DNA of 64,000 nucleotides. It comes from a virus. Its lineage: Duplodnaviria; Heunggongvirae; Uroviricota; Caudoviricetes. Both the position numbers and the translations under genes were made by a program. The DNA lies in the IMG/VR virus record IMGVR_UViG_3300033074_002207; one strand, 5' to 3'. Positions 11,584-42,262 of the stretch are shown one piece after another. The first letter of the stretch is position 1. Every line of letters begins with the position of its first letter. The notes beneath the pieces are model-generated. The model was given only the letters and a program-made list of their open reading frames with translations, made no database searches and was not told the origin of the DNA.

Positions 11584-11647
11584 AATTGATTTAATCAGAT
11601 ACTTGTAGTTTAAAGGTGAGCACAGTTCTTTTAACGAAAGACTAACC

Positions 11648-12151: not shown

Positions 12152-12156
12152 AATAT

Positions 12157-12232
12157 GGCCCGTTCGTCTAATGGTCAGGACACAACTCTTTCAAGGTTGG
12201 AACGAGGGGTTCAATTCCCCCACGGGTCACCA
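12157..12232 (+). tRNA. tRNA, anticodon TTC (Glu-type) (hand-folded)
   Basis: acceptor ggcccgt/acgggtc, D stem gtct/ggac, anticodon stem caact/ggttg with loop ctTTCaa, CCA encoded. Confidence 0.55.
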
Positions 12233-12239
12233 AATTCAT

Positions 12240-12317
12240 GCTGGTGTCTTCTAATTGGAATAGGAACCCTCCCTTTCAAGGAGTGCAATGCGGGTTCGAG
12301 TCCCGTCATCAGTACCA
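12240..12317 (+). tRNA. tRNA-like, anticodon loop ctTTCaa (Glu-type), weaker anticodon stem
   Basis: acceptor gctggtg/catcagt, T arm gcggg-ttcgagt-cccgt, CCA encoded; anticodon stem has one mismatch. Confidence 0.45.
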
Positions 12318-12392
12318 AAATTTATATGGCTCCATCTTCTAAGGGTAGGAAATAAAGAAGGTGTTACTTGGTTCATTCTTGAATATTATTGT

Positions 12393-13124: not shown

Positions 13125-13157
13125 TCGTGAGTTCAATTCTCCGTGGAGTCACCAGAA

Positions 13158-13186
13158 ATCCTCAAAATCTTCGGCGCGTGTATAAT
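13158..13186 (+). promoter_or_regulatory. promoter: ATCCTC-17-TATAAT
   Basis: atcctc aaaatcttcggcgcgtg tataat. Confidence 0.5.
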
Positions 13187-13247
13187 ATCAAAGTTGAATA
13201 GTTTTGACCAGATTGTTGGGGTTGCAAACCTAACAAGCCTCGGAAGT

Positions 13248-13340
13248 ACAACGAGAGAGTCAAATGCGGAGCAGTGTAGTTTAATGGTAGAACGCCCCCG
13301 TGTGGGGGGCGGTGCGGGTTCGAATCCCGTCGTTGTTCCA
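13248..13340 (+). pseudogene. non-canonical tRNA-like element (5-nt anticodon loop, G5/C5 stem); possible degenerate or intron-containing tRNA
   Basis: acceptor acaacga/tcgttgt, T arm gcggg-ttcgaat-cccg; ccccc-gtgtg-ggggg in the anticodon position. Confidence 0.3.
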
Positions 13341-16933: not shown

Positions 16934-17223
16934 TGTATTGCATGCACTTAAACGAACCAGTTGTAAAAAATATCAATTGCCGATTTTCAGACGATAAGGC
17001 TTGTGTTATTGTTGCTAAAACAGAAAAAGCTCTAGTAGACTATTTTAAAGAACTCAACTCATTTCGTCAGTTCGGCACTCCTATAGAGACTGATTTTACA
17101 CGACTCGCTGGATATGCCACATGGTGCGGTAAAGTGGCATTAATAGATGACAAGGAAATCTTCATCACCCATGTTTTTTGGGCTGAAGATGGGAAAATCG
17201 AAGAAATTCCTCAAAATACTTGA
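16933..17223 (+). CDS. hypothetical protein
   Basis: 96-aa ORF (TAATG overlap). Confidence 0.4.
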   Translation: MYCMHLNEPVVKNINCRFSDDKACVIVAKTEKALVDYFKELNSFRQFGTPIETDFTRLAGYATWCGKVALIDDKEIFITHVFWAEDGKIEEIPQNT

Positions 17224-17248
17224 CATCCGCTTATAAAGAGGATACAAT
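17207..17248 (+). promoter_or_regulatory. promoter: TTCCTCAAAAT box + TTGACA-17-TACAAT
   Basis: ttcctcaaaatac ttgaca tccgcttataaagagga tacaat. Confidence 0.6.
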
Positions 17249-17254
17249 AGGGAT

Positions 17255-17432
17255 AGGAAAAACCAAACACTATGGAAACCAACGCACGAATCAATATGGA
17301 GAACGCAAACGGCAATGCTATGCTATTGCTTGGTCTCTTGTTACTTCGCGCTGCTGACTGTAGTGTGTAATCGAATGTGTTAGAGAAACCAAACGAGAGC
17401 CCCGGTCAGCAGAAAGTTGACCGGGGTTTTTT
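17255..17432 (+). ncRNA. short transcription unit (possible sRNA or 33-aa peptide METNARINMENANGNAMLLLGLLLLRAADCSV) ending at a strong terminator
   Basis: from the 17207 promoter to the 9-bp stem ccccggtca/tgaccgggg + T6 at 17400-17432. Confidence 0.3.
17400..17432 (+). terminator. intrinsic terminator
   Basis: ccccggtcagcagaaagttgaccggggtttttt. Confidence 0.75.
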
Positions 17433-17474
17433 CTATTTAGAACATTGATAATTGCATAGTGGTGAAAGTAATAC

Positions 17475-17563
17475 GCAGATGTGGCGAAATTGGTAGTACG
17501 CGCTAGTCTCAGAAACTAGTGCCCTAATAAGGCGTGGAGGTTCAAGTCCTCTCATCTGCACCA
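17475..17563 (+). tRNA. tRNA-Leu(CAG), type II long variable arm
   Basis: acceptor gcagatg/catctgc, Leu-type D arm tggcgaaattggtag, anticodon stem ctagt/actag with loop ctCAGaa. Confidence 0.65.
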
Positions 17564-17565
17564 AC

Positions 17566-17651
17566 GGGAATATGGCGAAATTGGTAGCACGCGGCAAGCT
17601 CAAACCTTGCTGGAGAAATCCGTGGGGGTTCAAGTCCCTCTATTCCCACCA
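17566..17651 (+). tRNA. tRNA-Leu(CAA), type II
   Basis: acceptor gggaata/tattccc, anticodon stem gcaag/cttgc with loop ctCAAac. Confidence 0.65.
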
Positions 17652-17658
17652 AGTTTTT

Positions 17659-17742
17659 GCGGGATTGGCGAAATGGTATACGCGCCAGGTTTAGGTTCTG
17701 GTGGAGCAATCCGTGAGAGTTCGAGTCTCTTGTCCCGCACCA
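17659..17742 (+). tRNA. tRNA-Leu(TAG), type II
   Basis: acceptor gcgggat/gtcccgc, anticodon stem ccagg/tctgg with loop ttTAGgt. Confidence 0.55.
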
Positions 17743-17749
17743 AATTTTT

Positions 17750-17837
17750 GGTCTTCTGGCGAAATTGGTAGCACGCGGCATCCTTAAAAGTTGTTGTCAG
17801 AAATGGCGTCTCGGTTCGAGTCCGAGGAAGACCACCA
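17750..17837 (+). tRNA. tRNA-Leu(TAA), type II (one anticodon-stem mismatch)
   Basis: acceptor ggtcttc/gaagacc, loop ctTAAaa. Confidence 0.5.
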
Positions 17838-17845
17838 AATTTAAT

Positions 17846-17934
17846 GCGAACGTGGTGAAATGGAAGCACACGCTAGTCTTAGGAACTAGTCCGTAGCCAA
17901 TCGGGTGAGAGTTCGAGTCTCTCCGTTCGCACCA
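17846..17934 (+). tRNA. tRNA-Leu(TAG), type II
   Basis: acceptor gcgaacg/cgttcgc, anticodon stem ctagt/actag with loop ctTAGga. Confidence 0.6.
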
Positions 17935-17941
17935 AATTTGT

Positions 17942-18018
17942 GCTGCATTGGTCAAAATGGTAAAGGCAACAGGCTCAGACCCTGAAATCTGAGAGTTCGA
18001 ATCTCTCATGCAGCACCA
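17942..18018 (+). tRNA. type-I tRNA with Gln-like D arm and anticodon loop ctCAGac (CAG, a Leu anticodon); non-canonical
   Basis: acceptor gctgcat/atgcagc, D arm gtcaaaatggtaaaggc, 4-bp anticodon stem cagg/cctg, short variable loop. Confidence 0.4.
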
Positions 18019-18020
18019 AT

Positions 18021-18097
18021 GCTCCTCTAGGCCAACTGGTAGAGTCACATAGCTCAAACCTATGCAAGTCTCGGTTCGAATCCGGGGAGGAGCACCA
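18021..18097 (+). tRNA. type-I tRNA with anticodon CAA (a Leu anticodon) in a short-variable-arm scaffold
   Basis: acceptor gctcctc/gaggagc, anticodon stem catag/ctatg with loop ctCAAac. Confidence 0.5.
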
Positions 18098-18100
18098 AAT

Positions 18101-18177
18101 GTCGCGTTAGCCAAATTGGTAAAGGCAACAGGTCGAGAACCTGAAATCTGAGAGTTCGAGTCTCTCACGCGACACCA
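18101..18177 (+). tRNA. type-I tRNA, near-duplicate of 17942 with anticodon loop tcGAGaa (GAG; C at position 33) - non-canonical
   Basis: acceptor gtcgcgt/acgcgac; differs from 17942 mainly in the acceptor and the anticodon loop. Confidence 0.35.
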
Positions 18178-18184
18178 AGTTTTT

Positions 18185-18271
18185 GCGGATGTGGCGAAAT
18201 GGTAGCACGCGCAACGTTGAGGGCGTTGTGGGAGAAATCCCGTGGAGGTTCAAGTCCTCTCATCCGCACCA
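18185..18271 (+). tRNA. tRNA-Leu(GAG), type II
   Basis: acceptor gcggatg/catccgc, anticodon stem caacg/cgttg with loop ttGAGgg. Confidence 0.6.
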
Positions 18272-18343
18272 AATGTCCCGTCAGAGTGTGATATCCACTC
18301 TGCGAAGTCAAAAAACAGATAGGACGCTATCTATTGACCGGAA

Positions 18344-18435
18344 AGCGGGAAGATGACTGTGGCGAAATTGGTAGCCGCTGGCCGTGACGAGCGGTCTGCT
18401 GAGATAAGAACAGCGTGCAGGTTCGAGTCCTGTCG
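18344..18435 (+). tRNA. type-II tRNA-like with non-canonical anticodon loop (tgacgag) and an A1:C72 mismatch; identity unresolved
   Basis: Leu-type D arm, long variable arm, T arm gcagg-ttcgagt-cctgt, CCA encoded. Confidence 0.35.
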
Positions 18436-18446
18436 GTCACACCATT

Positions 18447-18932
18447 GTGTTGTATAATATCACAGATATGAACAAACATTCTATAGAAAATTCGATAAAA
18501 AAGGGTGACATCCTTTTAACGGACAAGGTGTGGTATTATGTGCAGTCAGACCCAGCGGTTGAAAATTCAGGGTATTTCTATGTGCCAAGACCTATAGCAG
18601 AAATCTCCTATGATTATGAAAATTATACTGACGAAGAGATTATGGAATTTTATATAAGAGATACACTGAATGGTCTTCGAAAAGCAGTGGAGAAGAAGTT
18701 AGAAAAATACGCCGACGATATTAGAAAAAAATGGAAGATGGATAGAGAAGAGCTATTAGTGGGAGCAGTTTATAAAACTGGTGATGGAGAATATGTTCAA
18801 ATTGTTCAAAAAGATTCAGATGGTGTAATGTTTCATGAAATGGAAGCCACGCCCACAACCAAATACACAGTGAGAAAGGACGTTCAAAAAAAGTCTAGAT
18901 TTGCTCTAAATATAGTTGAGAGAGTAAAGTAA
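18447..18932 (+). CDS. hypothetical protein
   Basis: 161-aa ORF. Confidence 0.45.
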   Translation: MLYNITDMNKHSIENSIKKGDILLTDKVWYYVQSDPAVENSGYFYVPRPIAEISYDYENYTDEEIMEFYIRDTLNGLRKAVEKKLEKYADDIRKKWKMDREELLVGAVYKTGDGEYVQIVQKDSDGVMFHEMEATPTTKYTVRKDVQKKSRFALNIVERVK

Positions 18933-18980
18933 CCCTGTGTTCAACCCAACTATCCAACTTACAAATAAGAAAATAGTTTT

Positions 18981-19065
18981 GGGAATATGGCGAAATGGTA
19001 GCACGCGCTGGTCTTAAAAATCAGTGGAGAAATCCGTGGAGGTTCGAGTCCACCTATTCCCACCA
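18981..19065 (+). tRNA. tRNA-Leu(TAA), type II
   Basis: acceptor gggaata/tattccc, anticodon stem ctggt/atcag with loop ctTAAaa. Confidence 0.6.
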
Positions 19066-19187
19066 AATGTATGACATCCTCTCACCACTATGGAAAAATC
19101 CTCAAAATCAGCGACAACGCAATAGTTTAGTGTCAGGTAGGGGAACATCCCGGAGCGGAGTCTCCGCCCCCCTGACTCCAAAATATC

Positions 19188-19496
19188 ATGAAAACAAATC
19201 AAGAATCAGTTCTTTCTAAACTCAATCCGAGAGAACAGCAGTTTGTCAAAGACGTGGTAAACGACATGCTATTTGATGCCAACGGTATCAGAATCAAAAT
19301 GAAGGGCGCAAAGCGTATCCGCGCAATCATGGATTCAATAGCATTGTGTATTTACGAATCACAAGGTTCTCACGGAAATCCCGATTTTAACCCGCCTGAT
19401 GCAGATTGGGTGGAGAAAGCCCGAGCAGCACAACTAGCAAAGGAAAAGCCCTACATCATTAAAGACGACGACGATGATGATGATTGGCCTGATTAA
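19188..19496 (+). CDS. hypothetical protein with poly-Asp C-terminus
   Basis: 102-aa ORF. Confidence 0.4.
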   Translation: MKTNQESVLSKLNPREQQFVKDVVNDMLFDANGIRIKMKGAKRIRAIMDSIALCIYESQGSHGNPDFNPPDADWVEKARAAQLAKEKPYIIKDDDDDDDWPD

Positions 19497-19532
19497 TTGA
19501 AGCAAAACGAACGATAATATAATCGAGGAACT

Positions 19533-19733
19533 ATGAAAGTACATTGCTCACAATGCGGCGAAGTTGACATCAACGAGGATATGGGATTCTGGTGTGATGA
19601 ATGCGGTGATAGAATCGAAGAATCAGACATCTTGTCTTCATTAATGGTCGAGTTTAGAATGATACAGCAGCCTGTTCAAGCGCTAGAAGCAAATCGTTCA
19701 TAAAATATTGTGCCCTCTTGTTGGAATGGTAGA
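19533..19733 (+). CDS. small zinc-ribbon protein (CxxC-x14-CxxC); 3' end overlaps the next tRNA so the true stop is uncertain
   Basis: hand translation MKVHCSQCGEVDINEDMGFWCDECGDR...; not present in the supplied ORF track. Confidence 0.25.
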
Positions 19734-19795
19734 CAAGGAGGTCTTAAAAACCTTTGCCGAAAGGCGTCCCAGTTCGAGTCTGGGAGGGGGCACCA
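19713..19795 (+). tRNA. tRNA-Leu(TAA), type II
   Basis: acceptor gccctct/agggggc (two G-U pairs), anticodon stem gaggt/acctt with loop ctTAAaa. Confidence 0.5.
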
Positions 19796-19856
19796 AATTT
19801 AACACACATTGGAATACTTAAAGGTACGTGTCTACCATAAATAGAATAACGAGTAT

Positions 19857-20366
19857 ATGTCACGTTCAAAAACATATACCCCTTCTCAGTTATACGAGGC
19901 TATCCAGGTAAGTACGTCTGTTGCTCAGGTTTTGACTCAACTTGGGTTAAAACCATGTGGTGGAAATTACAAAACAATTAACTCTTATATATCAGAGAAT
20001 CAAATTGACATAAGTCATTTCACTGGTTCGGCTTGGTGTGTGGGGGAAAAGGCAAAATATCTTGCTGATTCAAAACGTCTTTCTATGGAAGATATACTTT
20101 CTGGCAAATGTTCTTATAAATCCACATTCAAATTAAAAAATCGTCTAATAAAAGAAGGTTATTTTGTTCACAAGTGTTATAACTGCGGATTGGAAGAGTG
20201 GCAGGGGCGTCCCATTCCTCTTGAATTAGAGCATAAAAACGGAAACAATGCAGATAATCATATTGATAATCTAACCTTGTTGTGTCCAAATTGTCATGCA
20301 CAAACAAAAACATATCGAGGGCGAAACAAGAAGAAAAAAGATGTTGATGTTTTAGATATGGTATAA
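19857..20366 (+). CDS. HNH homing endonuclease
   Basis: LELEHKNGNNADNHIDNLTLLCPNCHAQT. Confidence 0.75.
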   Translation: MSRSKTYTPSQLYEAIQVSTSVAQVLTQLGLKPCGGNYKTINSYISENQIDISHFTGSAWCVGEKAKYLADSKRLSMEDILSGKCSYKSTFKLKNRLIKEGYFVHKCYNCGLEEWQGRPIPLELEHKNGNNADNHIDNLTLLCPNCHAQTKTYRGRNKKKKDVDVLDMV

Positions 20367-21383: not shown

Positions 21384-21800
21384 ATGAAATACACAACATC
21401 ATTCATCGTATTTCCAAAACACTGTAATCATTTGCGCGAAGTCATTTTTGGCGGACAGTTTATGGCTGAAATGGATTTAGCCGCAGCCCATTGTATTCGA
21501 CGCCTTTTGTTTAAGGCAAATGAAGGAGTAGAGCATGCCGTTACTCATAAAGCCAATTTTGATTTCCAAAAGCCAGCCTATCTTGGCGACTTAATTGAAC
21601 TAGAGGCTGAGGTTAAGTCTCTGGGAGAAAAATCTATTGTTGTTCAGGTTGTGGCTTGGCGCAACCGCAAGAATGTTCGCGCTCGCATGGCTATTGGCGA
21701 TTTTGTTTTTGTGGCTATCGGTGCTGTTGACGACCTTACAGGACACCCGGAATTTTTACCCTACAAAAATCACGGTTTGACAGACGAAGATATTGAATAA
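21384..21800 (+). CDS. hot-dog fold acyl-CoA thioesterase-like protein
   Basis: VFPKHCNHLREVIFGGQFMAEMDLAAAH resembles the YciA/4HBT hot-dog signature. Confidence 0.45.
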   Translation: MKYTTSFIVFPKHCNHLREVIFGGQFMAEMDLAAAHCIRRLLFKANEGVEHAVTHKANFDFQKPAYLGDLIELEAEVKSLGEKSIVVQVVAWRNRKNVRARMAIGDFVFVAIGAVDDLTGHPEFLPYKNHGLTDEDIE

Positions 21801-23157
21801 GATGAGTGACCAGCCCAGTTATTTGATAGACATTCCACCAGCCACCATCAGTGGTGAGTTGCACATGGGGCATATGTTCAGCTATGCCCAAATGGATTTT
21901 GTTGCCCGATATCATCAAATGATGGGTAAAGAATTGATTTACCCATTTTGTTACGATAACAATGGTTTGCCTACCGAAAAACTCGCACACAAAAACCAAG
22001 CATATGGGAAAGATGAAATTTTATCTTTTTCTCAGGATTGGTCGCAAGGATATTTGCAAACCTTCGAATCATTAGGGCTTGCACTATCTCCACAATCTTA
22101 TAATACTTTTGACTCCAATGCCGTTGCTCTGGCACAAATGTCATTTCAAGATTTGAAAGACAAGGGGCTTGTTTACAAAGCTCATACTGAATTTTTCTGG
22201 TGTCCAGTAACTCAGGTTTCGGTTTCGCAATCAGAGTTGACTGATGACATGCGTTATGAACGCTCTGGCGAGAAGGTTGAAATACGCAGTGGCGAAGGGT
22301 ATTTTGTTCGTATGATTGACCATTTGCCCGAGATTCGTCAAGCCATTGAAGAAATTCAGTGGCACCCGGAGCATTTCAAGCATAGACTGCTTCGATGGTT
22401 GGATGATTTGAAATTTGATTGGTCGATAAGCCGCGAAAGAAACTTTGGAATTCCTATTCCTGGAGAAGAGGGATTGGTTTTTGACACATGGTTTACAAGC
22501 AGCCTGTCGCCTCAAATGGCTTATTGTGCAGGTGGAAACACGCCCACATTAGACGTTCCGACTTTTGATGCTAGATTTCAGGCTCATGATATTATCAGAA
22601 CATGGGCTTTGTTTACGATTGTCAAATCGCTATATCACAACAACCGAATTCCTTGGAAGCATATTGTTATTAGCGGGCATGCAGTAGATAAACAAGGCAA
22701 AAAGCTGTCGAAAAGCTCACCAAATTACAAGCCTGCAACTTATTATTTTGAGCAATGGGGCGCTGACCCACTTCGTTTTTGGGCTGCTCAAAATCCAGTA
22801 GGCACAGACACCAAGCTCGATGAATCTGTAATGCTGCACGGGAAGAAGCTAATCAATAAAATTAAAAATGCTCGTAGATTCCTTGGTATGCAGTCAGATG
22901 CTGAAACTTGCGATGAGTGGATGAGTCAATGGATGTCCGTCAAAGCCGAGTTCTGCAACATGATGGAAAGCTTCAACTGGAGTGATGCGCTCAAGTTATT
23001 AACCAAATTTTTCTGGCATACTTATTGTGATATCTTTATTGAAGCCAACAAGCAGCAACCTGCAACTTTAACTTTGTCTTTGATAATGGATGATATGCTT
23101 GATTGCTATTCAATCTTTATGCCTGAAGTTAAACCCATACAATGTGAGATAAAATGA
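21793..23157 (+). CDS. catalytic-core-only class Ia aminoacyl-tRNA synthetase homologue (ValRS/IleRS/LeuRS family); lacks CP1 editing and anticodon-binding domains
   Basis: PPATISGELHMGHMF (HIGH), ARYHQMMGK, FDTWFTSS, GKKLSKS (KMSKS); 454 aa. Confidence 0.7.
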   Translation: MNKMSDQPSYLIDIPPATISGELHMGHMFSYAQMDFVARYHQMMGKELIYPFCYDNNGLPTEKLAHKNQAYGKDEILSFSQDWSQGYLQTFESLGLALSPQSYNTFDSNAVALAQMSFQDLKDKGLVYKAHTEFFWCPVTQVSVSQSELTDDMRYERSGEKVEIRSGEGYFVRMIDHLPEIRQAIEEIQWHPEHFKHRLLRWLDDLKFDWSISRERNFGIPIPGEEGLVFDTWFTSSLSPQMAYCAGGNTPTLDVPTFDARFQAHDIIRTWALFTIVKSLYHNNRIPWKHIVISGHAVDKQGKKLSKSSPNYKPATYYFEQWGADPLRFWAAQNPVGTDTKLDESVMLHGKKLINKIKNARRFLGMQSDAETCDEWMSQWMSVKAEFCNMMESFNWSDALKLLTKFFWHTYCDIFIEANKQQPATLTLSLIMDDMLDCYSIFMPEVKPIQCEIK

Positions 23158-23620: not shown

Positions 23621-23705
23621 GGGGCGGTGGCGTAATCGGTAGCCGCAGCAGTCTCAAAAACTGCCGTCGCAAGACGTGAGGGTTCGAGTCCCTCCTGCCC
23701 CACCA
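23621..23705 (+). tRNA. tRNA-Leu(CAA), type II
   Basis: acceptor ggggcgg/ctgcccc, anticodon stem gcagt/actgc with loop ctCAAaa, CCA encoded. Confidence 0.6.
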
Positions 23706-23721
23706 ATAAATGGAGACAAAA

Positions 23722-24409
23722 ATGAAAAAGAGCATAATTGAAATTCGGGCTGCTGAAGGCGGCGCAGAATCAAAGTTGTTAGTTAAAGACCAGTTTGCTA
23801 TTTACGCAAAGGCATGCACGCTGGAGTGTCTTTGACATCACCATCCTTGAAGAAAGAGATGGGTTTATTTCATTTTTGATAGAGGGTAAAAACACTTCTA
23901 TTTTTAACCGTGAATCGGGAAGCCATGTTTGGCAAAGAATATCCCCTACTGAAAAACGCGGTCGAACTCACACGTCCTTAATCACTGTTGCAGTATTGCC
24001 TGTTCCAGAAGAAAATGACATTGTTTTAAACGATAATGATTTAGAGATATCTAATTATTGTTCTTCTGGTCATGGTGGGCAGCACATTCAAAAGAATCAG
24101 ACGGCTGTGAGGATTGTTCACAAACCGACTGGCATCACAGTTACTTGTCAAAATGAACGCTCTCAGTTTCAGAACAAAAAATTTGCTCTAGATTCATTGA
24201 GAGCCAAGTTGAAAGATGTAAACGACCAAAAACAACAAAAAAATGTCACCGCTATGCGAAAAGACCAAATTGGCATCGGAGAGCGCGGAGGAAAAATTCG
24301 AACAATTCGAGTAAAAGACAATATGGTAATTTGCAATGTGACGAGCAATACCAAATCTTTCAAGGAATATCAAAAAGGAAAGATACGATTCGATAATGGC
24401 AAAGAATAA
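23722..24409 (+). CDS. prfB: peptide chain release factor 2 (compact form) with programmed +1 ribosomal frameshift (frame 0: 23722-23832, then +1 from 23834)
   Basis: ORF0 MKKSIIEIRAAEGGAESKLLVKDQFAIYAKACTLECL ends at CTT TGA C; an internal SD-like GGAG lies 3 nt upstream of CTT; the downstream frame carries the GGQ motif (SSGHGGQHIQKNQTAVRIVHKPTGI). Confidence 0.8.
23830..23836 (+). other. programmed +1 frameshift site CUU UGA C
   Basis: GGAGTGT CTT TGA C parallels E. coli prfB AGGGGGTAT CTT TGA C. Confidence 0.75.
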
Positions 24410-24977: not shown

Positions 24978-27156
24978 CTGGGTTTGTATTTGGTTGTGTG
25001 GATTGATTCTGCCCTTTGTCCATAGGTGAAACACCAAAAAACTTCAGATAATTGTCTATGTAGCTGTCTAAGCTCTCACGATTGACAATTCTTTTCAACC
25101 AAATATCTTGCTCAATTAGTGATGGGTTTAGTGTTGCATCGTAGTTAGTGACAAGCCAGTTGATAAAATTATAGTTTGGATTTTCTTGATTAGCACATAT
25201 GTTCGCCATTTCATTTGGCGATACGATTCCTTTGTTTAACAACAGGTTTGCCAGTTCTGTATCCCTGATTGCCATTAAGCTAACATATCTCTTATTAACC
25301 TCTGTTGCACCTTTTTCTTCGATAAGCCATTTTAACACAGGCGTGTGTATTACTTTAGGAGACAGTTCATTAACTGATATTTTGCCGGAATCTATAAACC
25401 ATTCTGCCATATCTTTATCTATTGTGGCAAGATAATGTGTGTTGTCACCCACATCAATATTGTGCTCAAGCGTAAGCCACTTAACAACATTCTGGTATAC
25501 ATTCACCTCATTTTGAGATTTCATGTTTTTAAATACTTCAACTATCTGCGGAATAGAAATCAACCCTCTGCTCACAAAATATTTAAGAGTTGGTAAATCT
25601 CTGAAATACGCTCGGATATTTTTATCAACCTCTGTTGCACCTTTTTCTTCGATAAGCCACCTCATAAGGTCGCCATCGGAATATGGCAATAAATCATCGG
25701 GACTCATAGCTTTACTGTCTAAAACAGCTTCAATTAAATCCATATCTTGACTTTTAGCAACATTGTAAGCTTTTTTAGGAGATGTCGGCACACCCATCTC
25801 TACAACCAACCATTTGAATACATCGTCAGACATAGTATATTGCTGCATCAGTTGTTCTGGTGTAATGATATTTTTACTTACGAGCATTTTTGCAAAATTT
25901 AAATCATAAGACGCAATTCTACTAACTTTTTGTATATCAACCTTTGTCGCGCCCTTTTCTTCGATAAGCCATTTTAACATAGGCGGGATATTGTATGGAT
26001 AGCCAGTTGCCAAGATTTCATTTGCCGTAGCTTTTCCGCTATCAATTAATTCATTAAGCTTGTCATAGTCTGGTTCGTTCGGTAAATCCCAGTTTTCTAT
26101 TTCACGTCCTTCATCATCCTCTTCCCGATGAACTGTGGCGATTGATACGATTTCCTCTAGGCTATCAGCATTTTTGTAAATTTCATCTGTTGCAATTTTT
26201 CTAGCACGTAAATATGTGTTCAACCACTGTGGTTTGTGGCTAATCATTGCTTTTTCATCTGGGTTTAAGGCAACACCGCTGTTTAGATATTGAACAATTA
26301 AATCATTGACATTGTTGTGTATCAAATATGCCAACTGCTCCATCGTCAAACGATGTCCGCGACCAATATACTTGGATTTTTCATCGTAAGTCAGTTGTTT
26401 GAACCAGTTCAACTCCCCATTTGTTCTCCCGAGTTTTTTGCTTTCGAGTCTTTCTTCTTCGGTATAGGGCTTGTTGACAAACTGAGATATATCCACGCCC
26501 TTAGATGCCAAATAATCAAAATAGGGTTTTGTTTCTTTACCAAACTGGTGAATGGTGCCCGTTGTGTTGTTTAAATCTGTCAGCAAGATGCCATTTTTGT
26601 TCATATCTACAACAACTCTTCGCAAAGGGCTGTCGGGTGGTTGAGTTCCATCATAAACAAAATAGAAGGTAGAACCCTGCATATCACGATACGATTGAAA
26701 CATACCTGATTGCTGTTTAGCAATACACCAAGATGTGCCCGCGCCCAATCTGCAAGCATCCTGCAAATTGTCCGCTTTTGTAACTGTGATTTTTCCCTCT
26801 TCAAATTGTGCTTGTGGTTCTGTGTTTTGTTGTTTTTTATTGGGGTTGAGCGCGTGATAAAAACCATCGACAACCTCTGTAAATTTAATCCAATCTACAG
26901 GTGTGTTGTTTAAAACCACGCCTTTGCGAGATGCATGAATGCTTATCGGTTTGCGCTCGTCTATCGCTGAAAGCCGAGAAATGTATTTTTGCACATATTC
27001 GGCATCAATGCTATTTAGAAAATACGCCGTTGCCGTTTGAAACTTAGGTTTGGGTGAAATTCGCAAAACTTCGGGCAGCAGGCTGCTGTCATTCAAAATT
27101 TGAATGATTTCTTTCTTTCCAGACAATATTATTCTTTTTGCCCCGCCATACCACAC
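24943..27156 (-). CDS. large repeat-containing hypothetical protein (737 aa) with at least three tandem copies of a WLIEEKGAT(E/K)V motif
   Basis: protein repeats; the DNA repeat tcaacctctgttgcacctttttcttcgataagccat recurs at about 25290, 25620 and 25935. Confidence 0.5.
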   Translation of the reverse strand: MWYGGAKRIILSGKKEIIQILNDSSLLPEVLRISPKPKFQTATAYFLNSIDAEYVQKYISRLSAIDERKPISIHASRKGVVLNNTPVDWIKFTEVVDGFYHALNPNKKQQNTEPQAQFEEGKITVTKADNLQDACRLGAGTSWCIAKQQSGMFQSYRDMQGSTFYFVYDGTQPPDSPLRRVVVDMNKNGILLTDLNNTTGTIHQFGKETKPYFDYLASKGVDISQFVNKPYTEEERLESKKLGRTNGELNWFKQLTYDEKSKYIGRGHRLTMEQLAYLIHNNVNDLIVQYLNSGVALNPDEKAMISHKPQWLNTYLRARKIATDEIYKNADSLEEIVSIATVHREEDDEGREIENWDLPNEPDYDKLNELIDSGKATANEILATGYPYNIPPMLKWLIEEKGATKVDIQKVSRIASYDLNFAKMLVSKNIITPEQLMQQYTMSDDVFKWLVVEMGVPTSPKKAYNVAKSQDMDLIEAVLDSKAMSPDDLLPYSDGDLMRWLIEEKGATEVDKNIRAYFRDLPTLKYFVSRGLISIPQIVEVFKNMKSQNEVNVYQNVVKWLTLEHNIDVGDNTHYLATIDKDMAEWFIDSGKISVNELSPKVIHTPVLKWLIEEKGATEVNKRYVSLMAIRDTELANLLLNKGIVSPNEMANICANQENPNYNFINWLVTNYDATLNPSLIEQDIWLKRIVNRESLDSYIDNYLKFFGVSPMDKGQNQSTQPNTNPVNTVDKATLAQ

Positions 27157-27207
27157 AATGTAATAATTTGGTTTTTAAAGGCATTTAACCTACCCTGGTG
27201 TATAATG

Positions 27208-27486
27208 AAGTTAATGAAAAGTCTTTTCCATACTGCATGGAACGTTTTGGTTCATTTATTTTGGTCAGTTGTCTTCTACGGACAATTTGTCAAAAGTTTT
27301 GATGGTATTTTGATGCTGTTTGGAACACGCTTGAGCCATGCCTACTCCACTTGGCCTAATTTTTCACTATCTTTAATTTTACTATTTTTTATGTGGCTGT
27401 CCATTTATATGTCGAAAATTGCAGTTAAGTGGTTCAGGCAGCTTGGGAATTCTGATTTTTCCTCAAAATCGGTTGACAAATCATAA
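27208..27486 (+). CDS. small membrane protein (start uncertain)
   Basis: hydrophobic segments; ORF-track entry 27100..27486 trimmed to an internal Met downstream of the divergent gene. Confidence 0.25.
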   Translation, partial: KLMKSLFHTAWNVLVHLFWSVVFYGQFVKSFDGILMLFGTRLSHAYSTWPNFSLSLILLFFMWLSIYMSKIAVKWFRQLGNSDFSSKSVDKS

Positions 27487-27501
27487 AAACCTGGAGATAA
27501 T
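27459..27501 (+). promoter_or_regulatory. strong promoter: TTCCTCAAAAT box + TTGACA-17-GATAAT (paralogue of 11268)
   Basis: about 75-bp near-identity with 11268-11340 including the transcript start acaatgaagttgaacgc. Confidence 0.7.
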
Positions 27502-27507
27502 GAAGAT

Positions 27508-27677
27508 ACAATGAAGTTGAACGCACTGATTCTAGATATGAGCTTTACTAGCCCTTCGGGGCTCTGACACAAGAGAGCAGATTTCTCTTGTAAAGCTTTG
27601 CGTTCGCTTCATCGCATAGACTTCCAGATACCCCGAAGGTGAGACACAGACCAGAAATGGCTGTGTCTTTGTGTTTT
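27508..27677 (+). ncRNA. about 170-nt small RNA candidate between a strong promoter and an intrinsic terminator, upstream of the tRNA cluster
   Basis: UUCG-tetraloop hairpin agcccTTCGgggct; terminator gacacag...ctgtgtc + tttgtgtttt; no ORF. Confidence 0.45.
27643..27677 (+). terminator. intrinsic terminator
   Basis: 7-bp stem gacacag/ctgtgtc + T-rich tail. Confidence 0.65.
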
Positions 27678-27682
27678 AAGAC

Positions 27683-27759
27683 GGGAGTTTGGCAGAGATG
27701 GTCTATGCGTCGGGTTGAAGCCCCGATTTAAGTCGGTTCGAGTCCGATGGCTCCCACCA
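27683..27759 (+). tRNA. tRNA with anticodon GAA (Phe-type), Tyr/Ser-like D arm but short variable loop
   Basis: acceptor gggagtt/ggctccc, anticodon stem tcggg/cccga with loop ttGAAgc. Confidence 0.55.
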
Positions 27760-27769
27760 AGATTTATGT

Positions 27770-27846
27770 GCCTCTTTGGTATAAACTGGTGAGTACGCTA
27801 GCCTGAAGAGCTTGAAGTCGGAGTTTGATTCTCCGGGGAGGCACCA
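27770..27846 (+). tRNA. tRNA, anticodon loop ctGAAga (GAA) with imperfect anticodon stem
   Basis: acceptor gcctctt/gggaggc, T arm cggag-tttgatt-ctccg. Confidence 0.45.
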
Positions 27847-27851
27847 AATAC

Positions 27852-27927
27852 GGGGATGTGGCAGAGTTGGTCAATGCGCTCGGCTGAAAACCGAGTTATC
27901 AGGGTTCGATTCCCTGCTACCCCACCA
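27852..27927 (+). tRNA. tRNA-like, anticodon GAA; two acceptor-stem mismatches (possible pseudo-tRNA)
   Basis: anticodon stem ctcgg/ccgag with loop ctGAAaa, T arm caggg-ttcgatt-ccctg. Confidence 0.4.
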
Positions 27928-27931
27928 ATAC

Positions 27932-28008
27932 CCGGACTTAGCTCACGGTGGTAGAGCGCCTCGCTGAAGACGAGGAGGTACTCGGTTCGACTCCGAGAGT
28001 CCGGGCCA
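27932..28008 (+). tRNA. tRNA-Phe(GAA), canonical
   Basis: acceptor ccggact/agtccgg, D stem gctc/gagc, anticodon stem cctcg/cgagg with loop ctGAAga, CCA encoded; overall very close to a bacterial tRNA-Phe design. Confidence 0.7.
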
Positions 28009-28065
28009 TCTAATTTGATATATTGCTGCAAGGTTAACCATCTAAGCTTGTAGAAATATTATGGG

Positions 28066-28641
28066 ATGAAACAGTGTATTAAATGCGGAGAGTTATTTCC
28101 GTCTACAATAGTGGTTAATGGCAAGAATAGGAATCTTCAAAATAGAACTCTTTGTCTTGACTGTGTTCCCTTCGGAGCAAGAAGTAATTCTACGGCTTTT
28201 CAGGTAAAGAAAGACATGGGTGTGCAACATTGGAGGATTAATGCTGGGGACACGCCCTGTTGTGTACTTTGTGGATGTGAAAAAAAGCGCGGACGCGGTA
28301 ATAGTATTCGTCTTTGCAATGTTTGTTTAAATAAAGCGCGTAGATACTTGTCTAAACAAAAAGCCATTGATATGTTGGGTGGTAAGTGTAAGGAGTGTGG
28401 ATGGACTGGTAATCAAGCTGGTTTTGATTTTCACCACAGAGACCCTAGTCAAAAAGAATTTTCTCTTGGAAATATAGCTCATAAAAGCTGGAGTGTGATT
28501 AAAGAAGAATTAAAAAAATGTGATTTGTTATGTAGAAATTGCCACAGTATTCATCACTCTACTAGATACGGAGATGATTTCTTACAAGAAGTTGCAATTT
28601 TACAAGCAAGAAGTAAAATATATCAAAACCCCAATGGTTGA
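28066..28641 (+). CDS. HNH homing endonuclease with zinc ribbon
   Basis: GKCKECGW...FHHRDP...CDLLCRNCHSIHH. Confidence 0.75.
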   Translation: MKQCIKCGELFPSTIVVNGKNRNLQNRTLCLDCVPFGARSNSTAFQVKKDMGVQHWRINAGDTPCCVLCGCEKKRGRGNSIRLCNVCLNKARRYLSKQKAIDMLGGKCKECGWTGNQAGFDFHHRDPSQKEFSLGNIAHKSWSVIKEELKKCDLLCRNCHSIHHSTRYGDDFLQEVAILQARSKIYQNPNG

Positions 28642-28711
28642 AAAGTGACACTGGTGACACGGCTACCGGGAGGTAGTAAAGTCAGGTTCGATTCCTGTGC
28701 AAACCACCATT

Positions 28712-28740
28712 TTCCTCAAAACCCCAGCATCTTGTATAAT
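28712..28740 (+). promoter_or_regulatory. promoter: TTCCTC-17-TATAAT
   Basis: ttcctc aaaaccccagcatcttg tataat. Confidence 0.55.
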
Positions 28741-28746
28741 CATCTT

Positions 28747-28888
28747 GAGGATAGCTTCCTCTGTTCTTGTCTCGGAGTTAGTGTAGAGATGGGTTAAAGC
28801 TATGCAGTCACCAACAAGGCAAAGCGGGAAAACGAAGCTGGTTTTCTGACAGGGGGCCGCCCAAGTGGAGCAGCCCCCTTTGATTTTT
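28747..28888 (+). ncRNA. about 130-nt small RNA candidate from the 28712 promoter to terminator 28850-28888, antisense-adjacent to the hsp20 3' end
   Basis: no ORF above 15 aa; 7-bp stem agggggc/gccccct + tttgatttttt. Confidence 0.35.
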
Positions 28889-29352
28889 TATCCTTCAGGA
28901 AGAGATTTTCGGTTAATAGGAATCTCCAGCACCGAAGCTTGAGATTCTCTTTCTTTCTTAGGCACGGTGACCGTAATGACACCGTTCTCCACAACCGCAG
29001 CAGCCTGTTCCGCAACAACGTGAGTGGGAAGCCTAAATGAGCGGCTGAATGAGCCATAGCGCATCTCTCGTTTGTAGACCTGTGTGTTTTCATCTACAAT
29101 ATCGCTCTTAGTTTCGCCATGAATTTTCAGCGTATTATTGTCAATAGTTACTCTGACATCTTCGCTGTTTACACCAGGCGCAGACATTTTATATACGACC
29201 GATTGAGCCGTTTCATAAATATCGCACTGTGGTACATGGTCAATCAAAGAGCTTCGCTCAGAACCGAAGAAGTCTTCGAACATTCTTTCGAATGGATTTG
29301 AGGGACGAATAAGATTTAGGGGTTCAAAAACACTTAACGATTTTTTGTTCAT
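28888..29352 (-). CDS. small heat-shock protein (Hsp20/alpha-crystallin family)
   Basis: alpha-crystallin domain ...VRVTIDNNTLKIHGE...GSFSRSFRLP...GVITVTVPK. Confidence 0.8.
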   Translation of the reverse strand: MNKKSLSVFEPLNLIRPSNPFERMFEDFFGSERSSLIDHVPQCDIYETAQSVVYKMSAPGVNSEDVRVTIDNNTLKIHGETKSDIVDENTQVYKREMRYGSFSRSFRLPTHVVAEQAAAVVENGVITVTVPKKERESQASVLEIPINRKSLPEG

Positions 29353-29473
29353 TGTAATTTCTCCTCTTTATCTATTTTGGAGCGAACTCCATATATACAT
29401 GACGAATAATTACCAAAAAACATCTCGCATCTGCGGGCATAATAAAGGATTTTTTTCGTATAATTGTATTGCT

Positions 29474-29779
29474 ATGGAAACAGTTAATACAAATAGTTTT
29501 GAAAAAGAAGTGTTGCAGTCTGGCGTGACGACACTTGTTGATTTTGGCGCATCCTGGTGCTCGCCATGTAAGGCTCTTAAGCCCACGTTGGAGTCTTTTG
29601 CCACTGAGCAAAAGGATTCCTTGAAGGTTGTGTATGTGGATATTGACGAAAATTCGGAGCTTGCCTCACAGTACGGAGTTATGTCAGTGCCAACTCTTGC
29701 CTTGTTTAAAGGTGGCGAGCTTGTTAAACGAATGGTCGGTAATGTGCCAAAGGCAAAATTGCAAGAATTTGTTAGCTGA
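29474..29779 (+). CDS. trxA: thioredoxin
   Basis: WCSPC active site, VPTLALFKGGE; start set at METVNTN inside ORF-track entry 29345..29779. Confidence 0.8.
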   Translation: METVNTNSFEKEVLQSGVTTLVDFGASWCSPCKALKPTLESFATEQKDSLKVVYVDIDENSELASQYGVMSVPTLALFKGGELVKRMVGNVPKAKLQEFVS

Positions 29780-29822
29780 CACACAAAATCCTCAAAGCAT
29801 AATCTATCAGCTATATATAAAC

Positions 29823-30341
29823 ATGGCTGTGGATTATGCTTTTCTATTTACCCAAATCTCTTCGGCTATCGCGGATATGGGTTTTATTGTTCATCCGCGA
29901 TGTGATGTGGTTGACCCAAATACAGGGGAGTTTGATGGGTTGAATATTTGGGTGGAAGAAGACCAGCCCATTGAACAAGCGTTTTATGTATTGCTGCATT
30001 TGTTTGGGCATAGTGTTCAGTGGAATGTAGATGCAGAGTTGCGCGAATTGGGACTAGATGTAAGCCTCGTCAAAACTGAAGAAGAGTTGACTAGAATTTA
30101 TCAATATGAGAAACACGCCTCTGCTTTGGCACTTACATTGTTACATCAAAACGGGATAGACTATCTTGACCAGTGGATTTCAAATTGGTTTTATGCAGAT
30201 TGGATGTGGCTAAAGCATTTGTATCAAACTGGTGATAAAGTAGACTATCTAACCTACTGGAGAGACGATGCAGATTTGTTACAGCCCGAACCCTTGCCAG
30301 AATTTACCCCACAATATTTCATTGCCAGAAACTCTTTTTAG
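29823..30341 (+). CDS. hypothetical protein (Trp-rich)
   Basis: in frame with ORF-track entry 29628..30341; start at MAVDYAF after a TTCCTC-like promoter at about 29779. Confidence 0.4.
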   Translation: MAVDYAFLFTQISSAIADMGFIVHPRCDVVDPNTGEFDGLNIWVEEDQPIEQAFYVLLHLFGHSVQWNVDAELRELGLDVSLVKTEEELTRIYQYEKHASALALTLLHQNGIDYLDQWISNWFYADWMWLKHLYQTGDKVDYLTYWRDDADLLQPEPLPEFTPQYFIARNSF

Positions 30342-30994: not shown

Positions 30995-31813
30995 ATGACT
31001 CACTGGTTGGTTGAAACAGACGCTTTTGATGAAAATTCGAGTGATAACATCGTCGCCGCTCTTAAGGATGCGGGTATTCCTTTAAAGCGATTCTCCTTAG
31101 AGGATTACTACGAAAAGCGCTATAACCACTTTCCAAAAGGGGAGTCTGTTTATTTTTACGGCTCTGTTCAGGTGGCGAAAGAGATTAGCGAGAGGGCTCT
31201 GTGGAGCCCCGGTGTGATTGGTGACTTTCGCCATTACAAGTGTTCTAGGTTTTATCCAGAATATGGCGATTTGATGCTGAGCGCAGAACACGTTTTTATG
31301 CCTTTTGGCGAACTTGAACGTCAGTGGAATTTTCTTTGTCGATTGTTTGAGAATGACTGTCTGTTTTTACGCCCCGATGGTGCAGACAAGGGTTTCGCGG
31401 GACAGGTGGTTACTGATTTTCAGCGATTCTTTGAAAAAGAATACCCTTATTTGTCTGAATTTAATGATATTAGCACAATGTGCCTAGTCTCAAGTGCGTT
31501 TAATATCGGCGCAGAATATCGTCTCGTGATATCAGATGGTAAATTCGTGACAGGAAGTCGCTATCGGTTAAATAACAGCGTAAGTCGAAGCCCAGAAGTC
31601 CCACTAAATGTTCAAGAGTTTGGTGAAAAACTTGCTGCCATCTATCAACCAGACCCAATATTCATTGTGGATGTGTGTACTTCAAATGACAACTTGTATT
31701 GCCTGGAAATCAACCCAATTAGTAGTGCTGGTCTGTACCTCATTGACCCCGCGAAATATGTTGCTGCAATCAACGAATCAATTGCAAGACATTTCCCGAG
31801 ACTCGCAGTATAA
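30995..31813 (+). CDS. hypothetical protein, possible ATP-grasp-like fold
   Basis: C-terminal IVDVCTSNDNLYCLEINPISSAGLY resembles an ATP-grasp strand-loop; weak. Confidence 0.35.
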   Translation: MTHWLVETDAFDENSSDNIVAALKDAGIPLKRFSLEDYYEKRYNHFPKGESVYFYGSVQVAKEISERALWSPGVIGDFRHYKCSRFYPEYGDLMLSAEHVFMPFGELERQWNFLCRLFENDCLFLRPDGADKGFAGQVVTDFQRFFEKEYPYLSEFNDISTMCLVSSAFNIGAEYRLVISDGKFVTGSRYRLNNSVSRSPEVPLNVQEFGEKLAAIYQPDPIFIVDVCTSNDNLYCLEINPISSAGLYLIDPAKYVAAINESIARHFPRLAV

Positions 31814-40864: not shown

Positions 40865-41128
40865 ATGTTTAGAGGCGTCAAAACCCCAATTCCAACCTAT
40901 CTCTCGATAGATATTGATTTTTTCGGATATCCATTTCTTGCCAGTTTAGAAGAGTTTGAGTTGTTTTTAGAGGGTGTTGCCAAATTTTCATCTGATAACA
41001 ATATTTTAATTCAAGCTATGGTCAACCACCCACGACTGAAAGTCGTGGGCTTGTTACAAGCGCCGAAGGCGCGAACAATAGGGAGATTGACTGCTCCCCT
41101 AAAGAAGCTATATTCTTACTGGCATTAA
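40865..41128 (+). CDS. hypothetical ORF whose 3' half overlaps the IS right-end hairpin; possibly a 5' remnant of a gene disrupted by the IS
   Basis: SIDIDFFGYPF (SxDxD) motif; the ORF reads into the IS end. Confidence 0.3.
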   Translation: MFRGVKTPIPTYLSIDIDFFGYPFLASLEEFELFLEGVAKFSSDNNILIQAMVNHPRLKVVGLLQAPKARTIGRLTAPLKKLYSYWH

Positions 41129-42262
41129 AGTCAGCATTCTCTGTGTGTCCGCAGGACACACAGAGAAACAAAGATTGACTCTTTCTATTGGCCTTTTCAC
41201 AATGTCCACATTCGCTACACGTCTGCGACGTGTAGCGAGCAGGGATAATAGCTAAAGGCACTCCATAGAGTTCAGCTTTGTAAGCAATGTAGCTTCTGAG
41301 TTGGGCGAACGCCCAACTCATTCTTTGACTTCTATTCACCCGCTTGACCGTTACTCTTTTATTGATATTTGTTAGCTCTTCGAGAGCTAACAAATATCCG
41401 AGTGCCTTTGCTTTTGTTACTAGAAGTTTTGAAATGACGTGATTGACGTCTCTTCTGAATCTGGATTCTTTTTGTCCAGCTTTCTTGACTCTTCTCATTG
41501 CAGAGCGCGTTCCGCGCTTCTGCAATCGTTGGCGATGAGCATGATACTGCTTTCGTTTCTTCTCGATGTGCTCTCCTGAGAACACATCTCCCAAAGAACT
41601 TACGGCAATTTTGTTCACTCCCAAGTCGATGCCTATGACGCCCTTGGCGTCATAGGCTGATGCTGTTGGGATTTCCAAGTTGCAGAGCAAGTAGAACTTG
41701 TTGTTTTGATAGACTAAATCTACTTGTCCTCTTCTAAATTTGAATCTGTCTTTGTCGTAGACTTGGATTGGAATTTCCATTCTCCCATCATTAGTCCAGA
41801 TACTGACAGTCCCTGAATCCCTGAAAGTAATCACTCTGTCGTCGTAGACGACAGCAGAAGTCTTCTTGAAGAAGTTCCTCTGATGTCTATTTCTCTTCAC
41901 TTTATAGGAGTCGCTCACGACTCCTATAGCTCGTACAACGAGCTGGGAAGAGAAGTCGGGCAGCGCTTCGCGCTGCCCTCTATACACCATATGATGTAGC
42001 TGAACTTTTTGATACTCTTTGGCTTCAAATGCTTGATTGGAAATATCGTTGCAAATATCGTTGAAAGTATTCATAGTGCGCAGAAGCGCACTATGTTGAA
42101 TCTCATTTGTATTGAGCTTCACTTTCAAAGTGATATTCACAATAAGGATTTTATGGTAGAAATGCTTTTTGTCCTTGTTGTTTTGAACAAATGTGCTATA
42201 ATTATTTCAGAGGCTCGATTCCTCCCACGATTAAAGTCGTGGGTTTCCTCTCGCAATTATCA
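41000..42262 (-). mobile_element. IS200/IS605-family insertion sequence carrying only tnpB (IS1341-like), with subterminal hairpins at both ends
   Basis: hairpins cccacgac-tgaaa-gtcgtggg at about 41027-41050 and cccacga-ttaaa-gtcgtggg at about 42225-42245; boundaries approximate. Confidence 0.6.
41022..42140 (-). CDS. tnpB: TnpB (OrfB) RuvC-like RNA-guided nuclease / IS605 accessory protein
   Basis: C-terminal RuvC-III plus zinc finger ...ARYTSQTCSECGH...CVSCGHTENADFNASKNI. Confidence 0.8.
   Translation of the reverse strand: MNITLKVKLNTNEIQHSALLRTMNTFNDICNDISNQAFEAKEYQKVQLHHMVYRGQREALPDFSSQLVVRAIGVVSDSYKVKRNRHQRNFFKKTSAVVYDDRVITFRDSGTVSIWTNDGRMEIPIQVYDKDRFKFRRGQVDLVYQNNKFYLLCNLEIPTASAYDAKGVIGIDLGVNKIAVSSLGDVFSGEHIEKKRKQYHAHRQRLQKRGTRSAMRRVKKAGQKESRFRRDVNHVISKLLVTKAKALGYLLALEELTNINKRVTVKRVNRSQRMSWAFAQLRSYIAYKAELYGVPLAIIPARYTSQTCSECGHCEKANRKSQSLFLCVSCGHTENADFNASKNIASLGEQSISLLFAPSALVTSPRLSVVGG

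Follow-up and report, generated by a model that had tools for sequence, protein, structure and literature searches.

Why would a phage keep four adjacent genes for tRNAs with one and the same anticodon, each built to a different design? The question is raised by positions 27683–28008 of a 64,000-nucleotide stretch of the virus record IMGVR_UViG_3300033074_002207 (Caudoviricetes); this whole stretch is referred to here as the window, and it looks like part of a large uncultured phage. The four genes (Phe1–Phe4) are genuine tRNA-Phe(GAA) isodecoders of differing design, located in a translation island of this phage. They form a unit in which a sigma-70-type promoter and a structured leader are followed by the four tRNAs and then by an HNH endonuclease gene. 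The unusual part is the isotype-sorted arrangement, not the tRNAs themselves. As an evenly balanced judgement, we favour the reading that the unit is a diversified and expressed set of tRNA-Phe variants, brought together through gene flow by homing endonucleases. The features of the unit are as follows.

27460–27501, + strand: promoter module of the Phe array, TCCTCAAAAT-N3-TTGACA-17 nt-GATAAT
27502–27682, + strand: leader of the Phe array, 181 nt, structured, with a terminator-like hairpin and U tract 5 nt before Phe1
27683–27759, + strand: Phe1, tRNA-Phe(GAA), loop UUGAAGC, D arm GGCAGAGAUGGUCUAUGC, A73, encoded CCA
27770–27846, + strand: Phe2, tRNA-Phe(GAA), loop CUGAAGA, 4-bp D stem, A73, encoded CCA
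27852–27927, + strand: Phe3, tRNA-Phe(GAA), loop CUGAAAA, D arm GGCAGAGUUGGUCAAUGC, A73, encoded CCA
27932–28008, + strand: Phe4, tRNA-Phe(GAA), loop CUGAAGA, canonical GCUC/GAGC D stem, C1:G72, discriminator G73, encoded CCA
28066–28641, + strand: HNH endonuclease gene of the phrog_2255 type (PHROG E = 6e-32), 57 nt after Phe4

ARAGORN and Rfam concur on the four genes and their loops, which had first been proposed in a sequence-only reading of this DNA. The spacers between them are 10, 5 and 4 nt. With Rfam RF00005 (gathering score 29), Phe1 scores 48.4 bits, Phe2 49.0, Phe3 63.9 and Phe4 58.2. A further GAA-loop element had been noticed near 935, and it too is a tRNA gene (44.3 bits).

935–1008, + strand: fifth tRNA-Phe(GAA), isolated, loop AUGAAGA, canonical D arm, 3-nt connector, A73

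For all five genes, Rfam and ARAGORN agree on the position of the anticodon (G34 A35 A36) in a 7-nt loop; no model shifts it, and none of the four array genes scores as a pseudogene. Judged by broken stems, an aberrant loop and a low model score, Phe1–Phe4 do not fall among pseudogenes. Folding of the single sequences to the minimum free energy (MFE) returns a cloverleaf from Phe4 and the 935 copy only, a result taken as uninformative for unmodified tRNAs. The array also turns up in Logan and ENA assemblies made independently from at least five other sequencing runs and is no assembly artefact; some of these match the window at 100% identity, and five strains do so at 97.5–99%.

The Phe genes are not copies of one another. 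Their pairwise identity is 52–72%, near the background between unrelated tRNAs, and the sole extended repeat in the array is between the 5′ halves of Phe1 and Phe3 (76%). Tandem near-identical units, the mark of segmental amplification, are not found in the array. Phe1 and Phe3 have the D arm UGGCAGAG..AUGC in common. By pattern scan, this design is present in 28 IMG/VR viral contigs, many of them 100–415 kb long, and it is the annotated tRNA-Phe of Streptomyces phages such as CeilingFan (gene 147). In an alignment of 21 family members, 99.3% of cells keep the cloverleaf pairing, and 115 changes are double-sided; not one of 500 shuffles attains this covariation, and slid registers are at most 53% paired. 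A covariance model (R1) built solely from 19 IMG/VR family members outside the window gives 84.2 bits for Phe3, 76.2 for Phe1 and 85.3 for the CeilingFan gene, with tRNAs of other isotypes at 20–46. Phe2 (49.7), Phe4 (34.6) and the 935 copy (20.2) lie in the generic-tRNA range, outside the family. Within the family, Phe1 is nearest to L033 (76%) and L031 (74%) and Phe3 to L026 and L023 (both 78%), so that each is nearer to the tRNA-Phe of other, unrelated phages than the two are to each other. Phe1 and Phe3 belong to a phage tRNA-Phe family that is widespread, and each Phe gene is a separate lineage, not a recent copy; the idea that the array arose by amplification, in the sense of copying, does not survive these comparisons. 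The D arms of Phe1 and Phe3 had been called Tyr/Ser-like. The arm is present, with a short variable loop, but this D arm marks a phage tRNA-Phe family, and the Tyr/Ser-like assignment is wrong because that family shows very strong covariation.

In Phe1, all 20 stem pairs are standard. Its UUGAAGC loop is also found in four IMG/VR loci (L021, L022, L029 and L031) and in CeilingFan; a blastn search of INPHARED with Phe1 gave no match. Phe2 has a U28.U42 mismatch and, in the window strain only, U at position 56, where four sister-strain contigs have the near-universal C56; the C56 allele scores 51.6 bits with Rfam versus 49.0 for the window allele. The closest tRNAs to Phe2 within the window are short tRNA-Leu genes (65–67% identity), and a D-arm pattern scan of IMG/VR for its relatives gave 52 matches, none within a tRNA.

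Phe3 is the sole copy with A37A38. Its acceptor stem (GGGGAUG/CUACCCC) has two adjacent mismatches, A5.A68 and U6.U67, which had been seen from the letters alone, and it is the only one of the 21 family members with acceptor mismatches. The tRNA-Phe of Pseudomonas phage ZY21, a cultured phage, has an acceptor stem identical to that of Phe3, mismatches included. The tRNA-Phe of Caulobacter phage BL47 (acceptor GGGGAUG/CUUCCCC) has U6.U67 in common with Phe3. The Phe3-type acceptor pattern does not occur in IMG/VR, an exact scan of IMG/VR for Phe3 strings gave no relatives, and the stem has one chance match in 185,579 species genomes, which is not a tRNA.

Phe4 had been regarded as the only canonical tRNA-Phe of the four and as close to a bacterial design. 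Neither statement can be kept. Phe1 and Phe3 are textbook members of the phage family, and Phe4 has C1:G72, G73 and G37. Phe4 is not near a bacterial design, because blastn over 5,426 E. coli genomes (E ≤ 1) gave no match and the phage matches are generic only: INPHARED holds no close relative, and the top phage match is a tRNA-Ala. The marks of a bacterial-type tRNA-Phe (A36-A37-A38, G1:C72 and bacterial similarity) are not assembled in any gene of the array, A37A38 being found only in Phe3. The C1:G72, G73 and CCA end of Phe4 is also present in one IMG/VR tRNA-Phe, L039 (13796–13871); the bodies of the two are unrelated, and the common end may reflect convergence or an acceptor-stem swap.

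In E. coli, T. thermophilus and yeast, PheRS uses discriminator A73 as an identity element. It is present in Phe1, Phe2, Phe3 and the 935 copy, with G73 in Phe4. The 935 copy does not encode CCA, as opposed to most of the other 22 tRNAs of the window, and its 3-nt connector separates the acceptor and D stems. Four of the five Phe genes have G37, versus the A37 of bacterial tRNA-Phe. The bacterial i6A37 pathway (MiaA) depends on A36-A37-A38; with their G37, these four copies would not be substrates of the pathway.

The Phe array is one of three. The window contains 23 tRNA genes by ARAGORN, every one on the + strand, and each array is devoted to one amino acid, Glu, Leu or Phe.

11269–13339, + strand: Glu array, with a promoter, four tRNA-Glu, a degenerate Glu-like ‘Thr(tgt)’ and HNH genes at 11648–12151 and 12288–13124
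17208–20366, + strand: Leu array, with a promoter, a leader, 11 tRNA-Leu, an aberrant Leu-bodied ‘Arg(acg)’ and an HNH gene at 19857–20366
23621–23705, + strand: lone tRNA-Leu, outside the Leu array

The four tRNA-Glu and the degenerate copy span 11.4–13.3 kb. The 11 tRNA-Leu of the array (17.5–19.8 kb) carry five anticodons, and three of them are 77-nt, class-I-shaped genes. Each anticodon in the window has 2–5 different genes. Phe, Leu and Glu, plus the two degenerate copies, are the only isotypes in the window and the 7.7 kb upstream of it, where no further tRNAs are found, and the skew of the repertoire that had been pointed out is confirmed. The comparison set, 28 loci from other tRNA-rich phage contigs, has mixed arrays with one Phe each, and the longest run of one anticodon is 2, versus 4 in the window.

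HNH genes are located within or directly after every array (11648, 12288, 19857 and 28066), and each of the four is 5–60 nt from a tRNA or overlaps one. They belong to the Pfam families HNH and HNH_3 and to phrog_2255, phrog_10822 and phrog_20891; none is a GIY-YIG SegB. The gene that follows Phe4 is 34% identical to the HNH gene at 11648–12151, between the Glu tRNAs, and 34% identical (E = 3e-13) to the HNH gene directly after the tRNA-Phe of CeilingFan. Among 80 metagenome loci with its relatives, 59 have tRNA genes in the flanks (≤4 kb), mostly less than 150 nt away and of mixed isotypes. In these loci (L100–L179), the family formed by the genes at 28066–28641 and 11648–12151 is very often beside tRNA-Met, tRNA-Asn and tRNA-Ile(UAU). 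The pattern suggests isotype-linked subfamilies of tRNA-associated HNH endonucleases.

Turnover of a Phe gene is visible between strains. In the sister-strain contig L002 (1009–1680), positions 27–53 of Phe1 are replaced by ~650 nt that hold a complete tRNA-Phe(GAA) and an HNH gene (phrog_20891); the 3′ junction of the same variant is present in L005 and L006. Remnants of Phe1 are left on the 5′ and 3′ sides, and the flanks are 98–99% identical. The incoming tRNA-Phe scores 42.8 bits with Rfam and has G34 A35 A36 in a UUGAAGC loop, as in Phe1. Homing with co-conversion of a linked allele, presumably a resistant one, would be expected to leave such a footprint. Two features of a SegB-like system are found here, an endonuclease within ~1 kb of the tRNAs and an allele-replacement polymorphism; membership of the SegB family is not. 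Decay is visible as well, at the end of the HNH gene that follows Phe4.

28636–28706, + strand: decayed tRNA relic, overlapping the HNH stop codon, 18.5 bits with R1

The relic retains an intact T arm (CAGGUUCGAUUCCUG) and ACCA tail and a D arm that can still be recognised. Its acceptor stem is broken, its ‘anticodon’ loop is 6 nt long, and neither ARAGORN nor Rfam calls it.

The sigma-70-type promoter of the Phe array, TTGACA-17-GATAAT at 27473–27501, agrees with the consensus at 11 of 12 positions. The module around it is ~85% identical across ~75 nt to that of the Glu array (11269–11310), and a related version precedes the Leu array (17208–17248). The general form before the three arrays is TCCTCAAAAT-N2/3-TTGACA-17-(G/T)A(T/C)AAT, and the motif occurs four times in the window, with 0.12 occurrences expected. 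Weaker copies are located at 4247, before RNA-ligase genes, and at 42730, before an open reading frame (ORF) at 42845. The Phe leader has an MFE of −62.1 kcal/mol (z = −5.2), none of 200 shuffles folds equally well, and it is kept in the sister strains that cover it (L002 and L003). The Leu leader (17255–17474, z = −3.7) has the same layout, with a terminator-like hairpin and U tract before the first tRNA. Neither leader matches an Rfam family, and the Phe leader has no paralogue in the window. The two leaders may be small RNAs or attenuators.

Between the window and L002, 226 of 10,911 aligned positions differ (2.1%). From the end of Phe1 through Phe4, the two differ at one of 272 positions (binomial P ~0.02), and that position is the U56 of Phe2 in the window lineage. 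The difference suggests purifying constraint on the Phe array, at modest strength. The genes had been suspected of being decoys or pseudo-tRNAs; their high covariance-model scores, their greater conservation than the flanks and the strong predicted promoter speak against this.

The other arrays contain irregular genes of their own. The 77-nt tRNA-Leu trio (CAG, CAA and GAG) is located at 17942–18018, 18021–18097 and 18101–18177. These genes have no class II long variable arm, and a Leu-like D arm and A73 are retained; two of the three, at 83% identity, have distinct acceptor stems and anticodons. CeilingFan likewise carries a 75-nt tRNA-Leu(UAG). The 77-nt genes would be without the variable arm, which is the part of tRNA-Tyr that is cleaved by Septu. 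The ‘tRNA-Arg(acg)’ at 18353–18444 has a class II Leu body and an aberrant loop, UGACGAG, without U33. The ‘tRNA-Thr(tgt)’ at 13270–13339 has the T arm of tRNA-Glu(CUC) and the loop CGUGUGG. Each looks like a degenerate member of its array, Leu and Glu respectively. The marks of a pseudogene are present in the relic at 28636–28706 and in the ‘Thr’ gene, and probably in the ‘Arg’ gene.

Genes for translation and RNA repair in the window include IF1 (5494–5793), an RNA ligase (4586–5299), RtcB (49459–50631) and an RF1/PrfH-like GGQ fragment of 204 aa (23795–24409). PrfH and RtcB cooperate in bacterial ribosome rescue and repair. A class I aminoacyl-tRNA synthetase of 454 aa (21793–23157) is most similar to ValRS and has no C-terminal domain; its matches to the ValRS model fall in separate stretches and pass over ~230 residues at the place of the CP1 editing domain. 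A thioesterase-fold gene (4HBT, 21384–21800) is located directly upstream. The synthetase was considered as a cognate enzyme of the arrays and rejected, being ValRS-like and not LeuRS or PheRS. The window also encodes a PurN-like formyltransferase, Hsp20 and DNA ligase. Host-like auxiliary genes are located at 8338–11251, 30995–31813 and 57744–59390 (isocitrate dehydrogenase, nucleoside deoxyribosyltransferase-like, deacetylase, R2K-type ATP-grasp and GroEL); a second R2K-type ATP-grasp copy lies upstream of the window, in L008. A transposase gene (41022–42140, − strand; phrog_506, E = 1e-48) is located within the phage region. The window has no close relative in INPHARED or IMG/VR: Megablast of positions 26000–30000 against INPHARED gave nothing, IMG/VR scans with the 737-aa neighbour and the R2K neighbour of the array gave no relatives, and homologues of the 737-aa protein are not syntenic.

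What keeps several tRNA-Phe designs together in one genome? The first alternative to a selected set of variants is that the HNH cassettes drag tRNA passengers along, so that the extra Phe genes are redundant, mostly drift towards pseudogenes and owe nothing to selection for variety. We regard this as unlikely. The relic behind the array and the degenerate Glu-like copy at 13270 speak for it, as do the acceptor mismatches of Phe3, unique in its family, the U56 of the window strain and U.U pair of Phe2, and the missing CCA and extra connector base of the 935 copy. The cassette that destroyed Phe1 in sister strains likewise implies that these genes are expendable when replaced. However, the cassette that overwrote Phe1 brought a complete tRNA-Phe with the same unusual loop, so that the number of Phe copies was kept. 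The four array genes also retain high model scores, are more conserved than their flanks and stand directly behind a strong predicted promoter shared with the other arrays, and the mismatched stem of Phe3 is identical in ZY21, a viable phage.

A second alternative is plain dosage: the phage would need much tRNA-Phe, either to meet codon demand or to make up for host tRNA degraded by the phage, and the sequence differences would be incidental. Many tRNAs are common in large phages (PMC7162821), and amplification driven by SegB increases tRNA dose (PMC13096335). TTT is twice as frequent as TTC in this 42% GC genome. In 61 ORFs of the window (16,216 codons), however, Phe makes up an unremarkable 4.2% of codons (Leu 8.4%, Glu 6.6%), and the window lacks tRNAs for commoner residues such as Ala, Val, Ser, Gly and Lys. 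Codon demand was rejected as the explanation of the Phe array on account of this ordinary usage; something beyond codon supply is needed, because Phe is so small a share. Amplification for dosage yields near-identical repeats, whereas the Phe genes are diverged and of different lineages, and none of the 28 comparison loci has more than one Phe. Dosage is improbable on this evidence, a shade more so than passenger accumulation.

The weakest alternative is that some GAA tRNAs are charged with another amino acid (UUY recoding or mistranslation), or that Phe-, Leu- and Glu-tRNAs feed an aminoacyl-tRNA-dependent transferase or cyclodipeptide synthase; the 3-bp D stem with G13.A22 of Phe1 and Phe3, which resembles that of the window's class II tRNA-Leu, the restriction of the arrays to Phe, Leu and Glu, the G73 of Phe4 and the nearby ValRS-like gene without an editing domain could be read this way, but the idea is very improbable, because TTY codons of RtcB align with Phe and many phages with full tRNA sets have the Phe1/Phe3 design as their only tRNA-Phe, while the nearby synthetase is neither LeuRS nor PheRS and no L/F-transferase, cyclodipeptide synthase or Fem-type gene is found among the scanned ORFs. 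The TTY codons of RtcB align with 9 Phe, 4 Leu and 1 Tyr, and TTY stands at 9 of 11 reference Phe positions; UUY recoding was rejected on this alignment, GroEL being too diverged to inform.

We return to the reading of the unit as an expressed, diversified set. Homing endonucleases that cut tRNA genes would bring with them a linked tRNA that has the same isotype and resists cleavage. In this way, new copies would land next to old ones, and isotype-sorted arrays of divergent variants would accumulate. The set would be retained because variety, at positions 32, 37 and 38 of the anticodon loop, in the D arm and at the acceptor end, would keep UUY decoding robust. The threats could be loss of host tRNA-Phe or its cleavage by tRNA-targeting defences, and differences from host to host. 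By analogy with described phage tRNAs, we infer a role in resistance to tRNA-targeting defences. A more specific version, in which a library per anticodon (five genes for Phe-GAA, two to three per Leu or Glu anticodon) hedges against tRNA-cleaving or tRNA-modifying defences, with HNH homing to collect and sort it, is put forward only tentatively, as less likely than not.

Several points weigh against the reading of a selected set. Among the published defences consulted, none was found that targets exactly Phe, Leu and Glu: LshCas13a prefers Lys/Glu/Gln/Thr, and with the Schlafen protein RorSlfn5 tRNA-Lys fragments are the most abundant, so that neither fits. Terminator-like hairpins separate the first tRNA from the promoter in the Phe and Leu units. 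Genes for other isotypes may lie elsewhere in the genome, beyond the window and the 7.7 kb upstream. The irregularities of Phe2, Phe3 and the 935 copy and the relic at 28636 fit relaxed constraint, and the conservation test is weak because the strains compared are only 1–2.5% diverged.

The nearest known system is that of T4 and T6, where the homing endonuclease SegB in the tRNA clusters promotes inheritance and amplification of tRNA genes, and where its amplification of tRNA-Tyr defeats the tRNA-Tyr-cleaving Septu (PMC2330249, PMC13096335). In both cases, a free-standing homing-type endonuclease gene lies within a phage tRNA cluster, tRNA alleles are inherited or replaced along with it, and the cluster ends up with additional tRNA genes of a sort that can be relevant against tRNA-cleaving defences. 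The system in the window differs in that it has HNH genes from three PHROG families, not a GIY-YIG enzyme. Its arrays are divergent same-anticodon genes sorted by amino acid, whereas the product of SegB is a set of tandem identical repeats. A phage tRNA cluster with homing endonucleases is known; the isotype-sorted array of divergent same-anticodon genes is the new aspect.

Phage tRNAs can evade anticodon nucleases through loop changes (PMC10264068), and single tRNAs counter single defences, as T5 tRNA-Lys does PARIS (PMC11464382) and tRNA-Tyr does retron Eco7 (PMC11555353). The Phe genes resemble these defence-resistant tRNAs in having anticodon loops off the bacterial norm (G37 in four of five, U32/C38 in Phe1), and the window also has tRNA-repair ligase genes (RNA ligase at 4586, RtcB at 49459). 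There, however, one tRNA serves each threatened isoacceptor, while the window has up to five designs per anticodon, and no matching nuclease is known. The UGGCAGAG..AUGC family agrees with Phe1 and Phe3 in D arm, short variable loop, loop variants (UUGAAGC/CUGAAAA) and covarying stems, and in CeilingFan a homologous HNH gene follows the tRNA-Phe. In the other genome stretches examined, the family occurs once each, among many isotypes; the window has two members plus two unrelated designs. Huge-phage tRNA repertoires (PMC7162821) and bacterial tRNA array units (PMC4758250) are likewise dense clusters that accompany translation genes, but they aim at breadth, with many isotypes, whereas the 23 tRNAs of the window serve three amino acids.

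It has long been asked why phages carry tRNAs, and the recent answer, that they allow escape from tRNA-targeting immunity, is based on single tRNAs. An array with several unrelated designs for the same anticodon offers a natural set for testing. Should anticodon nucleases, acceptor-end toxins or host synthetases act differently on these designs, the array would show which tRNA features are relevant in the arms race. The array has a promoter class of its own and a visibly active endonuclease cassette, and it also suggests how homing endonucleases could build isotype-sorted arrays. Should the library reading be true, the locus would represent a new and modular type of counter-defence, with tRNA genes and selfish endonucleases as its parts; should the copies be redundant, it would still be a clear example of tRNA gene birth and death through selfish endonucleases.

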